From a virus (lineage: Duplodnaviria; Caudoviricetes): a DNA stretch of 34,765 bases. Position numbers and translations under genes: made by a program. Positions 29,831 to 33,863 of the stretch are shown here, in pieces. Position 1 is the stretch's first letter. Each line of letters starts with the position of its first letter. Below the pieces are notes generated by a model. It was not told the origin of the DNA. It did not search any database and worked only from the letters and a program-made list of their open reading frames with translations. Location of the stretch: IMG/VR virus record IMGVR_UViG_3300011335_000591, positions 1 to 34,765 of that record. One strand, given 5' to 3'.

Positions 29831-30038
29831 TGTTCAAGTTCCAGAAACCAAATGGTCAATGCTTGTTTGGAAAACACTAAAGGAGAAACCACATAACGAT
29901 GAAAGAGTTCTTATGGATATCGGCGGTGAGGTTGTTGTCGGTCGTTTCGTTGATGATTCGTTTGTCTCTCGAAGCTGGGGACATTCTGAAAATGATGTTC
30001 GGCTTTGGGCAAGCTGGCCGAAAGCACCCAAATGGTGA
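29817..30038 (+). CDS. Hypothetical protein (DUF551-like)
   Basis: W....EKP....VL...V..W...P..P pattern; AGGAGG SD. Confidence 0.55.
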   Translation: MSAVDVQVPETKWSMLVWKTLKEKPHNDERVLMDIGGEVVVGRFVDDSFVSRSWGHSENDVRLWASWPKAPKW

Positions 30039-30181
30039 GTTTCCTTTCATCCATCGGGAAAGTTTTGTGGGAGTTATTCGTGGTCGGTATAGGATGCTTG
30101 AGTCTGTTTCTCACCATTCTATTTGCGAGCGAAATGTTGTGGGATTTAATAAAAGATATATGGAGGAGAATTAAAAAATGA
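30032..30181 (+). CDS. 49-aa membrane protein (MVSFLSSIGKVLWELFVVGIGCLSLFLTILFASEMLWDLIKDIWRRIKK)
   Basis: Manually translated; overlaps the upstream stop and the downstream ATGA. Confidence 0.55.
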   Translation: MVSFLSSIGKVLWELFVVGIGCLSLFLTILFASEMLWDLIKDIWRRIKK

Positions 30182-30387
30182 GCGTTAAAAGATTAAGCCT
30201 TGTCGATGAGTTTCACGGATTGGTTAGTAGAAGATTAAAAGACTTGTTTAAGAGATTGAACCACGCAGAAGTGGAAAACTTTAAGGATATCATCAGCCAC
30301 CTTGACTACTCGCATCGTATAACCAAAGAGCTACTGGAGCGTGCCAAGAAATACCAAAAGCGAGATGTGGAAAAGGCAAAGAAGTGA
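30178..30387 (+). CDS. Hypothetical helical protein
   Basis: GGAGGAG SD; coupled to neighbours. Confidence 0.65.
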   Translation: MSVKRLSLVDEFHGLVSRRLKDLFKRLNHAEVENFKDIISHLDYSHRITKELLERAKKYQKRDVEKAKK

Positions 30388-31151
30388 AGCGAGATTCTTT
30401 CTGGTTTCCCTTTGAGCCGAACCGCTGGCTATCTAACGAGAAGCTATCGTTGGTGAGTCTCGAGGCCAAGGGGCTATGGATTCACCTAGTCTGCCTCATC
30501 TACAAGGCCAACGCCGGCGGCAGGCTGGTTATCAACGGCAACCCGCCCACCCCAGAACAGATCAGCCGAATGGTTGGGCAAGATGCCAACCCACTTCTAA
30601 AAGAGCTTGAGGTTGCAGGGGTTTATGAGATTAAAGATGGGGCAATCTACCACGGCGGCACGGCTGAAACCCTAGCAGATATGAACAAAAGATCGGCTGG
30701 GTACGCTTCAAGATCAACCAAAGATAGACCATCTATGAGCCATAGATGCGCCATAGATGAGCCATCTATGCACCATCTATCGTCCATAGATGAGCAAAAG
30801 ATGGGACACAATAACAATAACAATAACAATAACAATAAGAAAGAGAGAGGGGGCTTGCGCCCCACGCACGCTGAATGGATTGCCTTTGCTAAAGAAATTG
30901 GGTGGAGGCATACGGATGCGGAGTCGGCTTTTGATTACTACCAGAGCAACGGATGGAAGGTCGGGGGCAGGGCATCGGTCAAGGATTGGAGGGCTTGTGC
31001 CAGAAATTGTCAGCGCAGAAGCAACCAACAACCAACCAAAGGAAACCAACCAATGAAGAAACCAATCAAATCGGGGTGCGAATCCCCTCCAACTTACAAA
31101 ATTATGGGCTTTCAGACGCTTGAGGCGTGGGAAAAGGCAGGGTGTCCGTGA
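30384..31151 (+). CDS. Replication initiator protein
   Basis: WFPF....WL...SLEAKGLWI.L N-terminus, central iteron linker, FDYYQSNGWKVG...KDWRA C-terminus. Confidence 0.82.
   Translation: MKRDSFWFPFEPNRWLSNEKLSLVSLEAKGLWIHLVCLIYKANAGGRLVINGNPPTPEQISRMVGQDANPLLKELEVAGVYEIKDGAIYHGGTAETLADMNKRSAGYASRSTKDRPSMSHRCAIDEPSMHHLSSIDEQKMGHNNNNNNNNNKKERGGLRPTHAEWIAFAKEIGWRHTDAESAFDYYQSNGWKVGGRASVKDWRACARNCQRRSNQQPTKGNQPMKKPIKSGCESPPTYKIMGFQTLEAWEKAGCP
30718..30838. repeat. Putative replication origin: 11-bp periodic iterons (CCATAGATG/CCATCTATG) followed by (CAATAA)x5
   Basis: Six good units at 30729-30794 plus degenerate flanks; AT-rich repeat at 30809-30838. Confidence 0.8.
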
Positions 31152-31543
31152 ACGACCTTGTTTTAGCGGCCACAATCCATAGGGTGAAGCTATGCGAGGA
31201 CAAAATTGCCCAATTTGAGCAACTCATAAGCACACTCACCGCCCAAATGGCTCATAATCGCTCAGAATTGGCCTCCAAAGGGCTGGCAAACCTAGTTATG
31301 GGCACAACCACCCCCCTAGACATCCCAAGGGAGCTACGGCCAACCTTCGGGCGTTATCGGGCAAGGGGAAATCGTTCCCACAACACAGTCCAGAAGCGGT
31401 GGGGTATTTGGAAGGCTCAATATGAGTCTGGGCTAACAGTAAAGGAGATTGCAAACGCTTGGGGGTGTCATCATTCCTCAATCGTGAACGCAAAAAGCAA
31501 AAACTTCACGGCTCGGAAGTCAACTGGGAGGGCAATCAAATGA
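31148..31543 (+). CDS. Coiled-coil plus C-terminal HTH protein
   Basis: GLTVKEIANAWGCHHSSI; GTGA overlap. Confidence 0.65.
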   Translation: MNDLVLAATIHRVKLCEDKIAQFEQLISTLTAQMAHNRSELASKGLANLVMGTTTPLDIPRELRPTFGRYRARGNRSHNTVQKRWGIWKAQYESGLTVKEIANAWGCHHSSIVNAKSKNFTARKSTGRAIK

Positions 31544-31806
31544 TAGCCTTGCTAGAAGCAGAGCAGTTTGAGTTGCCCTTTATGCGAACCACGCACCCAG
31601 TAAAGACGGAAGGCCACGACCAGAACGCCCGCATCCTAGCCCACTTGCAGGCAGGCCGAACACTCACGGCTCTGGAGGCGCTGGAATGGTTCAAGTGCTT
31701 CCGCTTGGCAAGCCGAGTGTGCGACTTGCGGAAGGCTGGACACGATGTGCAGAAGCGAACCATAAAGACGAACAGCGGAAAGAGCGTAGCGGAGTATTAT
31801 TTATGA
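31540..31806 (+). CDS. Winged-helix protein
   Basis: QNARILAHL..G.TLT.LEA...F.CFRLASRV.DLR..G motif; ATGA overlaps. Confidence 0.75.
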   Translation: MIALLEAEQFELPFMRTTHPVKTEGHDQNARILAHLQAGRTLTALEALEWFKCFRLASRVCDLRKAGHDVQKRTIKTNSGKSVAEYYL

Positions 31807-32471
31807 GTTTTGGCGGCGATAGCTCAACAGTAGAGCTTCCCCTATTCCAAGGGGAGGATGGCGGTGCAATTCCGACCTCGCCGCTCCAACTTTTGTTTAG
31901 GCCAATCAAATATATTACGGCGAATAACTTCTTAGTGAAATGGCATTACCTGCACAGGCAAGCCCCAACAAGTTTTTCGTATGGTGCATATTTTTCTGGA
32001 GAAATCATAGGAGCCTGTACCATAGGCAAACCAGCGAGCCATACCCTTCTTAGTGGAGTTGCTGGCAAGGAAAGGGCGGCTGATGTTTTTGAATTAAACA
32101 GACTATGTTTTTTGGATGAAGCCCCGAAAAATTCAGAAAGCAGATTCATCGGATGGGTGATTAGGCAAATGGCAAAATCTACAATCCTAGTTTCATATGC
32201 AGACACGGCACAGGGACACTCTGGGATTGTATATAAAGCAACAAACTGGATTTACACGGGCACAACAATCCCATTTACAGACTACACCCTTGGAGGGTTA
32301 GACCATAGGAGCGTGCCCAAGCATTTAAGAGATAAGTCAAAGATGCAAAAAGTAGTCCGTAGTAAGAAGCATCGATTCGTTTATTTTTGCAACCCAGAGG
32401 ACAGAATGCTTCTGAAGTGGGGTGTAGAACAACCTAAAACTACCCCTTGCATCAAACCAGACTCAAAGTAA
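31803..32471 (+). CDS. mom: Mom-like GNAT-fold DNA adenine modification enzyme
   Basis: HYLHR, ELNRL, KNSESRFI, LVSYAD..QGH.G.VYKATNW.Y.G, KHRFVY motifs; ATG 31803 overlaps the upstream TGA. Confidence 0.85.
   Translation: MSFGGDSSTVELPLFQGEDGGAIPTSPLQLLFRPIKYITANNFLVKWHYLHRQAPTSFSYGAYFSGEIIGACTIGKPASHTLLSGVAGKERAADVFELNRLCFLDEAPKNSESRFIGWVIRQMAKSTILVSYADTAQGHSGIVYKATNWIYTGTTIPFTDYTLGGLDHRSVPKHLRDKSKMQKVVRSKKHRFVYFCNPEDRMLLKWGVEQPKTTPCIKPDSK
31813..31888 (+). tRNA. tRNA-Gly(TCC)-like cloverleaf, non-canonical, inside the mom coding sequence
   Basis: GCGGCGA/TCGCCGC acceptor, T73, CCA, GCTC/GAGC D stem, TCCCC/GGGGA stem around TATTCCAA, GGCGG/CCG(A)CC T stem. Confidence 0.8.
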
Positions 32472-32486
32472 GTTGCAAACTTGATG
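32447..32486 (+). promoter_or_regulatory. Sigma70-like promoter, probably leaderless
   Basis: TTGCAT-N16-TAAGTT, then 6 nt to TTG ATG; same geometry as 27134. Confidence 0.45.
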
Positions 32487-32780
32487 AACGAAACCTATAC
32501 AACGCCCGAGGTAAAGGCGAATGGCATCCTTACTGACCGCTACCCCGGCAAGGAACTAGAAAAACTTTACGCCACGACCCGCAACCAAGCCACGATTGAT
32601 ATGCTTCGAGACGCCGTGTTCACGCTAATCACCAACGAAATCCCAACCTGCACGATTGCGGAAGTGCTAAAGAAAACCCACGGAGCAATCCAGTACCACC
32701 TTCGATATCTTGAGGGCAGGGGCAAGATCAAAAGGCCAAATAAGAGGTGTCATTGGACGGAGGTGAAGCGTGAAGATTAA
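32481..32780 (+). CDS. HTH DNA-binding protein
   Basis: TIAEVLKKTHGAIQYHL. Confidence 0.7.
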   Translation: MMNETYTTPEVKANGILTDRYPGKELEKLYATTRNQATIDMLRDAVFTLITNEIPTCTIAEVLKKTHGAIQYHLRYLEGRGKIKRPNKRCHWTEVKRED

Positions 32781-33324
32781 CAAGATGGAGGCCAAGGCAA
32801 TCGAGGCACAGATCGATAAACTCAAGACCCCGATTGACAACGCAGAAGGCAAAAGAACCAAGGGAGACGAATCCCCATCGAGACGCTATCAGCACCTATG
32901 CGAGCGACTCCACTTCTTAACGATGAAAAAAGCCATCATCATCCTAGCCATCACGCTCTTAACCTCGGTGCAGGGTGCGAACATCCTCATTGAAACCCCA
33001 AAGCCACCAGCCAAGAAAACCATCAAGGCTCGCATCACGGCGTACTGGCTAGGCGAGGACGAGTTTGGTTGGAAAAGCTCAACTGGAAAACGGTTGGTTT
33101 CTGGCAAGTCTTGTGCCGTTGACCCAAAAATTATCCCCTACGGAACGACCCTGCTAATCGAGGGCAAGGCATATCACGCCCACGACACCGGAACGGCAGT
33201 CATATCACGAAAGGCATCGGGCAAATCTAGGTTGCCAGTCGTTGACCTTTTCTACGCATCAGAACGGCAGGCGAGGCGGGAGTTGGCGAGGGTAGGACGG
33301 ACAGCGGTTGTGGAAATCCAATAA
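32770..33324 (+). CDS. 3D-domain (Asp-Asp-Asp) cell-wall glycosidase-like protein
   Basis: ITAY, AVDPKIIPYGT, DTG, VDLF; signal peptide from the internal ATG 32923. Confidence 0.8.
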   Translation: MKINKMEAKAIEAQIDKLKTPIDNAEGKRTKGDESPSRRYQHLCERLHFLTMKKAIIILAITLLTSVQGANILIETPKPPAKKTIKARITAYWLGEDEFGWKSSTGKRLVSGKSCAVDPKIIPYGTTLLIEGKAYHAHDTGTAVISRKASGKSRLPVVDLFYASERQARRELARVGRTAVVEIQ

Positions 33325-33863
33325 TGAACTACCAAGGGCAAGGCCAAGACCCAGCGGATAGCATCTTGGCTAGTTACACCCCCAACATGGCAGACCATAT
33401 CGACACGCTGGAAGATCGAGTAAAGGAACGGCTCGCCAAAATGAAGGCGATGAACCCCAGCATCGACCTCGACCAGCTAGCCAAACTCACGGCAGAGGTG
33501 GTTGAGCAGACGATAAAGCACGAAGGCGATTCCCAAATGTTGAGGCATCGAAGGGACGATACCTTGGACGAATCGCTACTAGCCCTAGCATCGAACCGAA
33601 GCCCCGACTCTCTGACCTCCATCGCCAAGCGTTACATCAACCCAAGCACCGGCAAGCCATACACAAGGGCGGCCATCTCGGCACGGCTTACGGAGTTGAG
33701 CCAACGAACCGGGCTAGTTTTACGCATCCAACGGAGCGAAAGGGTGAGGCAAATCTACAAGGAACGAGCCTTGAGGGTGCATAAAAAGAGGCGTGAGGAA
33801 TGCCCAAAATGGAACAAGGAAGCGTGGGAAAAAGGCATTAAAAAGCGAGGGAAAAAACGGTGA
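33324..33863 (+). CDS. HTH protein, candidate late transcription regulator (sigma region 4-like)
   Basis: SLTSIAK...TRAAISARL helix pair; position at the end of the early region. Confidence 0.45.
   Translation: MNYQGQGQDPADSILASYTPNMADHIDTLEDRVKERLAKMKAMNPSIDLDQLAKLTAEVVEQTIKHEGDSQMLRHRRDDTLDESLLALASNRSPDSLTSIAKRYINPSTGKPYTRAAISARLTELSQRTGLVLRIQRSERVRQIYKERALRVHKKRREECPKWNKEAWEKGIKKRGKKR

Follow-up and report, generated by a model that had tools for sequence, protein, structure and literature searches.

A non-canonical tRNA-Gly-like RNA at the mom loci of phages and bacteria, and its possible role as a glycine carrier

Described systems and how the locus compares

A tRNA-Gly-like element at a mom gene has been described in the ssrA islands of Dehalococcoides, where a 76-bp "pseudo-tRNA" lies in the first 150 bp of a mom homolog in 16 modules (McMurdie 2011, PMC3146451). 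That account, in its available text, gives no function for the element; it predates the chemistry of Mom and covers one genus and a fosmid. The use of Gly-tRNA by Mom, which an earlier note on this DNA had mentioned, is published for the enzyme of phage Mu: it moves glycine from Gly-tRNA-Gly to N6 of dA, works with each of the three tRNA-Gly isoacceptors of E. coli and not with mischarged tRNA-Ala, and depends on its unstructured residues 11-19 (PMC13219725). Donor tRNAs of a related kind are known from Staphylococcus aureus, in which the tRNA-Gly species NP1-NP3 are the donors for FmhB, FemA and FemB, show low EF-Tu binding and are preferred by the transferases (PMC7826273).

We analysed a virus record of 34.8 kb (the whole stretch is referred to as the window). 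Compared by description, its RNA resembles the Dehalococcoides pseudo-tRNA in length (76 nt), 5' location in mom, NCC anticodon (DCC in theirs) and short loop. Dehalococcoidia/Chloroflexota copies are also located 5' and in frame (with ParB adjoining in the locus L299), and those from Dehalococcoidia MAGs score 72-77 bits with our RNA model. The T-stem bulge, the 3', tandem, inverted and D-armless forms, and the breadth among phages are not described in the available text of that account. The window protein shares with Mu Mom the family, the fold and six key residues (8BV8; Silva 2026, PMC13219725); Mu relies on host tRNA-Gly and, unlike the window, lacks this kind of RNA at its mom locus, and the two proteins differ at R151 and W48. 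With NP1-NP3 the window RNA shares the glycine identity, a TGC T loop and possibly an extra anticodon-stem pair (PMC7826273), but NP1-NP3 have stand-alone genes in the chromosome of a staphylococcal lineage and serve the cell wall, whereas the RNA described here occurs on phages and islands, overlaps the frame of the enzyme, carries a T-stem bulge and has a proposed role in DNA modification. Because bulge and context differ, we take the resemblance to the NP type as one of working principle only.

A term search of the available main text of PMC13219725, its preprint and one supplement returned no mom-linked tRNA, and in the mostly open literature that was covered we found no paper joining a mom-embedded tRNA-like element with the Gly-tRNA donor. 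The embedded element (PMC3146451) and the Gly-tRNA donor (PMC13219725) are already known, separately; what is added here are the D-armless, tandem and inverted forms and the cultured phages that carry the RNA.

The mom gene of the window and the RNA within it

The Mom-like identity that the earlier note gave to the gene is confirmed by domain, family and fold. PF25680 covers residues 30-205 of the protein (E 5.7e-35, 121.3 bits versus a curated cut-off of 27.1), phrog_1384 is matched as well, Mu Mom (8BV8) is matched by sequence, and a fold search with the predicted model returns 8BV8 at rank 1 (E 1.1e-12, TM 0.66; GNAT fold). In the alignment, H58, Y59, R111, S124, D149 and Y159 of Mu Mom correspond to H48, Y49, R100, S113, D134 and Y144 of the window protein, and W48 is not conserved. 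Because R151, which is essential in Mu, aligns to A136 (with R in 0/21 other alignment rows), the chemistry of the window Mom itself, expected to be the formation of N6-carbamoylmethyl-dA from Gly-tRNA, is presumed rather than read from the alignment. Residues 1-20 are predicted to be disordered and have low confidence in the structure model.

The stop codon of an upstream winged-helix gene overlaps the start of mom (Table 1), and the two genes are likely to be translationally coupled through this ATGA. A longer mom frame from an ATG at 31686 is interrupted by stops in several relatives. Further upstream, a 255-aa ORF (30384-31151), which is probably a replication initiator, has a poly-Asn run (HNNNNNNNNNKKER, 30685-30720) between two domains and no Pfam match.

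Table 1. Features of the mom locus in the window (positions in the window)
Feature	Position	Strand	Basis
Winged-helix (HTH_39) gene; its TGA stop overlaps the mom ATG at 31803 (ATGA)	31543..31806	+	
Mom-family GNAT gene, 222 aa	31803..32471	+	PF25680, phrog_1384, 8BV8 by sequence and fold
tRNA-Gly-like RNA, 76 nt, non-canonical	31813..31888	+	sequence, Rfam, fold, covariation
Acceptor stem, 5' strand (G1 at 31813, C2, G3)	31813..31819	+	sequence, fold, family counts
D arm, 4-bp stem and 7-nt loop; missing from many relatives	31822..31836	+	fold, family counts
Anticodon arm, TCC at 31846-31848; CC are the GlyRS determinants C35/C36	31838..31855	+	
T arm, bulged A at 31875 between pairs 50-64 and 51-63	31860..31877	+	Rfam, fold
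Acceptor 3' strand, discriminator U73 (31885), encoded CCA (31886-31888)	31878..31888	+	

The cloverleaf reported by the earlier note, with its fully paired acceptor stem (7/7), U73, CCA and TCC, holds up on sequence reading, Rfam and fold, and translation of the ORF agrees that these nucleotides make up codons 4-29 of mom (GGDSSTVELPLFQGEDGGAIPTSPLQ), the catalytic domain starting straight after the CCA. On the tRNA-finder check suggested there the results are split: the Rfam tRNA model (RF00005) scores 32.3 bits, above its gathering score of 29 (E 0.0042), and is the sole Rfam match in the window, but ARAGORN finds 0 genes in the whole window and, among 49 close loci, calls eight, seven of them with undetermined identity. 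The cloverleaf is the minimum-energy fold of the RNA (-34 kcal/mol, z -3.27; equalled by 2/200 shuffles). We reject a chance fold.

Set against a canonical decoding tRNA-Gly, the window RNA has the cloverleaf, the 7-bp acceptor stem, N73 and CCA, as well as all GlyRS determinants (G1-C72, C2-G71, C35, C36 and U73) and the identity pair G3-C70; it lacks the 7-nt anticodon loop, the unbulged 5-bp T stem, the UUC T loop and the GG of the D loop. Its anticodon loop has 8 nt, or 6 nt if a possible sixth pair extends the stem, and its T loop opens with UGC. A promoter and terminator scan of 30000-33500 gave hits at chance level and none at the RNA element. The RNA runs X1-X3 contain 7-9% of the words; they consist of contigs only and are silent on expression and RNA ends.

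Conservation, forms and distribution of the RNA

The element is present in 48 of 49 close loci, a figure that is biased because one search word lay inside it, and a core-only alignment made from the close loci located it ahead of 70 of 80 loci, many of them near-duplicates. Among 59 copies aligned with MAFFT, every pair of the acceptor and T stems is formed (100%), and there are 240 double changes versus 86.8 in shuffles. In 64 copies collected from the protein side, in an alignment fitted to the RNA model, 92.1% of the pairs are formed (35-41% in slid controls) and 19 of the 21 pairs have double changes; the covariation counts ignore kinship. Both silent (C50A/G62T, column numbering) and residue-changing (G4C/C69G, C5A/G68T, C11T/G23A) compensatory changes are found. 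The 102 distinct copies on the 3' side of mom, from two of the clades sampled below, comprise 85 that are read through (19, 14 and 52 by frame), 10 that hold a stop, 6 located after the stop and one that is inverted, and the peptide is unable to explain such copies. Selection acts on the RNA, beyond the peptide, as follows from the covariation and the independence from position and frame. The earlier note proposed to ask whether homologs keep the peptide and lose the pairing or the glycine identity; the opposite is seen, pairing and glycine identity being conserved and peptide and frame not.

The coding side of the 5' copies has to be weighed against this, since the RNA might be a fossil, i.e. 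a tRNA gene or attachment site that was captured and turned into an N-terminal peptide, with the fold left over. All 96 translated 5' copies are free of in-frame stops, Leu-Phe is encoded at the anticodon in 54 of these 96 versus 0/50 3' copies, some Mom proteins without the RNA fold keep a similar N-terminal peptide, and Mu Mom needs its residues 11-19, all as such an origin would predict; a start codon is absent within 30 nt past the CCA in 69 of 111 5' copies. This explanation nevertheless has to face compensatory changes of both kinds, copies in three reading frames or outside the coding region, and the low confidence of residues 1-20 in the model, and we regard it as very improbable. Stem covariation and frame- and position-independence largely refute the fossil or attachment-site remnant, and a constraint on the peptide alone is rejected by stem covariation, the three reading frames and the non-coding copies.

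In L001-L048 (relatives of 31813-32417) the RNA is identical at 61-76 of 76 positions, and identity in the Mom domain that follows ranges from 33 to 90%; in L029 an identical RNA is followed by a Mom core with 40% identity. The catalytic cores look as if they were swapped like cassettes at the CCA boundary, judging by these identities, perhaps with a change of target specificity. The sliding-clamp binding consensus is QL[SD]LF, and the 5'-copy peptides ELPLF, QLSF and QDLF (window 31827-31847; L589, L557, L571) resemble it as putative clamp-binding motifs.

A pattern built on DNA only, which combined the T arm and its bulge with the 3' strand of the acceptor and the CCA, found at least 120 viral loci (about 500 estimated), and a Mom match is present at 78 of the 80 viral pattern loci with long flanks. 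In 67 of the 120 loci the element is followed in frame by Mom, and in 29 Mom precedes it in frame; Mom uses a different frame in 7 and the opposite strand in 2; at the 15 where it was undetected, 13 flanks are of 300 nt or less and one is truncated. Among 97 pattern matches in genomes, 54 are Mom-linked, in assemblies that carry the labels Chloroflexota, Acidobacteriota, Verrucomicrobiota, Bacillota, Proteobacteria and several more; the 43 without Mom mostly have poor acceptor pairing and are unrelated sequences caught by the pattern. Since the pattern fixed some identity bases, three further Mom clades were also sampled, starting from protein matches: the best 80 of 595, 574 and 462 were taken, a choice that leans towards the seeds, themselves carriers of the RNA. 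Within these best 80 of each clade the RNA is present at 79, 53 and 39 loci (model matches 76, 42 and 39, plus 3, 11 and 0 found by the descriptor only), and in two of the clades it is absent from 27/80 and 41/80. On a rough tree (FastTree only) the RNA occurs in every sampled Mom clade, its position tracks the clade and its absence is repeated. The tree labels follow a strict descriptor, which marks L038, L061, L110, L390, L416, L553 and L600 as "none" despite a positive model match and mislabels L402, so the number of losses counted on the tree is too high. Tandem pairs were found in L408 and in Psychrobacter phage vB_PmaS_Y8A, and 5' embedding in mom is one arrangement among several.

Analysis of 133 distinct protein-side model matches reveals which parts of the RNA are kept. 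G1-C72, C2-G71, the CC in the anticodon loop (expected by chance in about 32% of shuffled 8-nt windows) and the bulged A in the T stem are invariant (133/133), G3-C70 is found in 127, U73 in 122 (A73 in the other 11), and CCA is encoded in 122; the model may favour bulged, identity-keeping copies, and it also detected unbulged ones. The T loop reads TTC in 23 copies and TGC in 56, the wobble base varies freely, and 60 copies are D-armless forms of 67-70 nt. Forms of this size (e.g. L408:1865-1932, L436:1603-1670, L445:1436-1504) have an extended, internally bulged anticodon stem in place of the missing D arm and fall into at least two subtypes. The D arm, the T loop and the wobble base, which have decayed in this family, are the features that decoding needs by the anatomy of tRNA. 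We reject an ordinary decoding tRNA on its non-canonical loops, the D-armless forms and the decayed wobble base and T loop. The elements that the earlier note listed as GlyRS identity (acceptor pairs, U73, C35/C36) agree with the bacterial determinants G1-C72, C2-G71, C35, C36 and U73 (PMC10464925) and are kept across the family; U73 in addition shields Gly-tRNA-Gly from the DTD deacylase (PMC6097841).

Among cultured phages, the RNA is present at 5 of 14 mom loci scanned with flanks of 500-700 nt. Salinibacter phage B2_17 carries it annotated as tRNA-Gly. vB_PmaS_Y8A carries two D-armless copies in tandem, neither of them annotated, in the interval from mom to the terminase small subunit (OQ059336 7786-7926; L596:1162-1302); a further mom gene is located at 39393-40157 of this phage. 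In Arthrobacter phages Sicarius2 and Martha (L597:1101-1174, L598:1101-1174) the 3' end of mom overlaps a tRNA-Gly(UCC) that is unbulged and lacks an annotation, and Microbacterium phage MenE (L600:1151-1225) has an annotated, unbulged tRNA-Gly(CCC) on the opposite strand, just past mom. The same flanks hold no such RNA in Mu, JD024, phiEf11, phiSA_BS1, A511, Riggi, JeffCo, Lupine and LP65 (9/14). A blastn search of cultured phages with the 76-nt RNA gave no match, and the cultured copies were located only through Mom. Since Mu and eight other cultured loci are devoid of it, Mom does not generally require the RNA.

The unbulged Arthrobacter and Microbacterium copies, nearer to ordinary tRNA-Gly and in MenE annotated so, raise the question of a general phage glycine tRNA or decoy, which would buffer the Gly-tRNA pool against host defences that cleave or acetylate tRNA, or serve other transferases, and would sit beside mom through shared late expression. 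Five further records (L190, L264, L284, L287, L293; incomplete or of unstated completeness) have the RNA and no Mom above the Pfam cut-off, one of these copies ending a C5-methyltransferase gene, which points the same way. On the other hand, the adjacency of Mom at nearly all long-flank viral matches and the presence in all sampled Mom clades are not what a general tRNA predicts, and the non-canonical loops and D-armless forms speak against decoding; we consider this reading improbable. In L264 the copy (1501-1580) forms the end of a gene for a C5-cytosine methyltransferase (PF00145), an apparent terminase small subunit following directly downstream, in an assembly where no Mom was found.

A probable glycine carrier for Mom

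The reading that we favour, and hold to be probable, is that the RNA is a private, non-decoding glycyl carrier, which would be cut out, charged by the host GlyRS and spent by Mom. Its observed basis is the fold, the covariation, the retained GlyRS determinants, the decay of decoding features, the linkage to Mom and the independence from position and frame. The tRNA-like RNA would be released from the mom transcript by RNase P at the 5' end and by trimming at the 3' end, with CCA added where it is not encoded; the host glycyl-tRNA synthetase would then charge it, the T-stem bulge would keep the charged RNA from EF-Tu and the ribosome, and Mom would move the glycine to adenine in phage DNA. Each embedded transcript could yield either the enzyme or the RNA, which may also cap the level of the toxic Mom. 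Because Mu Mom accepts all three E. coli isoacceptors, a requirement of GlyRS accounts better for the constant CC than one of Mom does.

The role given to the bulge draws on two described facts: EF-Tu sequesters ordinary Gly-tRNA from FmhB, so that a low-affinity isoacceptor feeds the transferase (PMC7826273), and 50-64 and 51-63 are two of the three pairs that set EF-Tu affinity (PMC3239215). Its effect on EF-Tu is our extrapolation, because the available main text of PMC3239215 mentions no bulge. By the table in that paper the T-stem pairs seen most often in the family (G49-C65, G50-C64, C51-G63) do not count as strongly weakening for EF-Tu, and the unbulged Arthrobacter and Microbacterium copies also argue against escape by means of a bulge. 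The carrier reading as a whole is opposed by the A73 of 11/133 copies, by the five copies in Mom-less records, by the loci that lack the RNA in cultured phages (9/14) and in two clades (27/80 and 41/80), by the missing R151 and by the ability of Mu Mom to function on host tRNA-Gly (PMC13219725). Charging of a tRNA that lacked the D arm was very inefficient with the GlyRS of Lactobacillus (PMC10464925), which sits awkwardly with the 60 short forms.

A different use of the same fold would be regulatory: it could limit Mom through tRNA-processing nucleases, or act as an uncharged mimic that binds Mom or GlyRS, with no glycine passing to DNA. Mu keeps the toxic Mom under tight control (bioRxiv 10.1101/861617), excision of an embedded copy would take out the start or stop codon, and the element was repeatedly lost on the Mom tree (with the overcounting and imperfect labels described above), all of which suits such a role. 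Yet a cis operator fails for post-stop, tandem, inverted and divergent copies, and neither a processing signal nor a Mom inhibitor has a clear use for the invariant CC and G1-C72/C2-G71. We judge regulation without glycine transfer unlikely; a regulatory role can co-exist with the carrier as its side effect. A pure 5' operator is rejected by the copies that are located after the stop, in tandem or inverted.

The earlier note had seen in the locus a module of an enzyme and its own glycyl carrier. Of this, the pairing and the glycine identity, conserved beyond peptide and frame, stand; the RNA is not required by Mom generally and 5' embedding is not universal. More tentatively, the family may be a widespread two-part system, in which the mom mRNA would also be the precursor of an orthogonal, ribosome-blind carrier with an invariant T-stem bulge, reducible to a D-armless RNA of 67 nt, the dual-coded transcript giving enzyme or co-substrate.

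Most copies are missed by standard tRNA finders, and the family is accordingly under-annotated. Since it needs Gly-tRNA, Mom has to compete late in infection with EF-Tu and with protein synthesis. If true, a private carrier would explain how many phages afford dense DNA modification, would show donor tRNAs of a dedicated kind to serve anti-restriction in phages as they do the cell wall in staphylococci, and would provide natural rules for charged tRNAs that avoid the ribosome. The cultured phages that carry the RNA make the question of the carrier directly testable.
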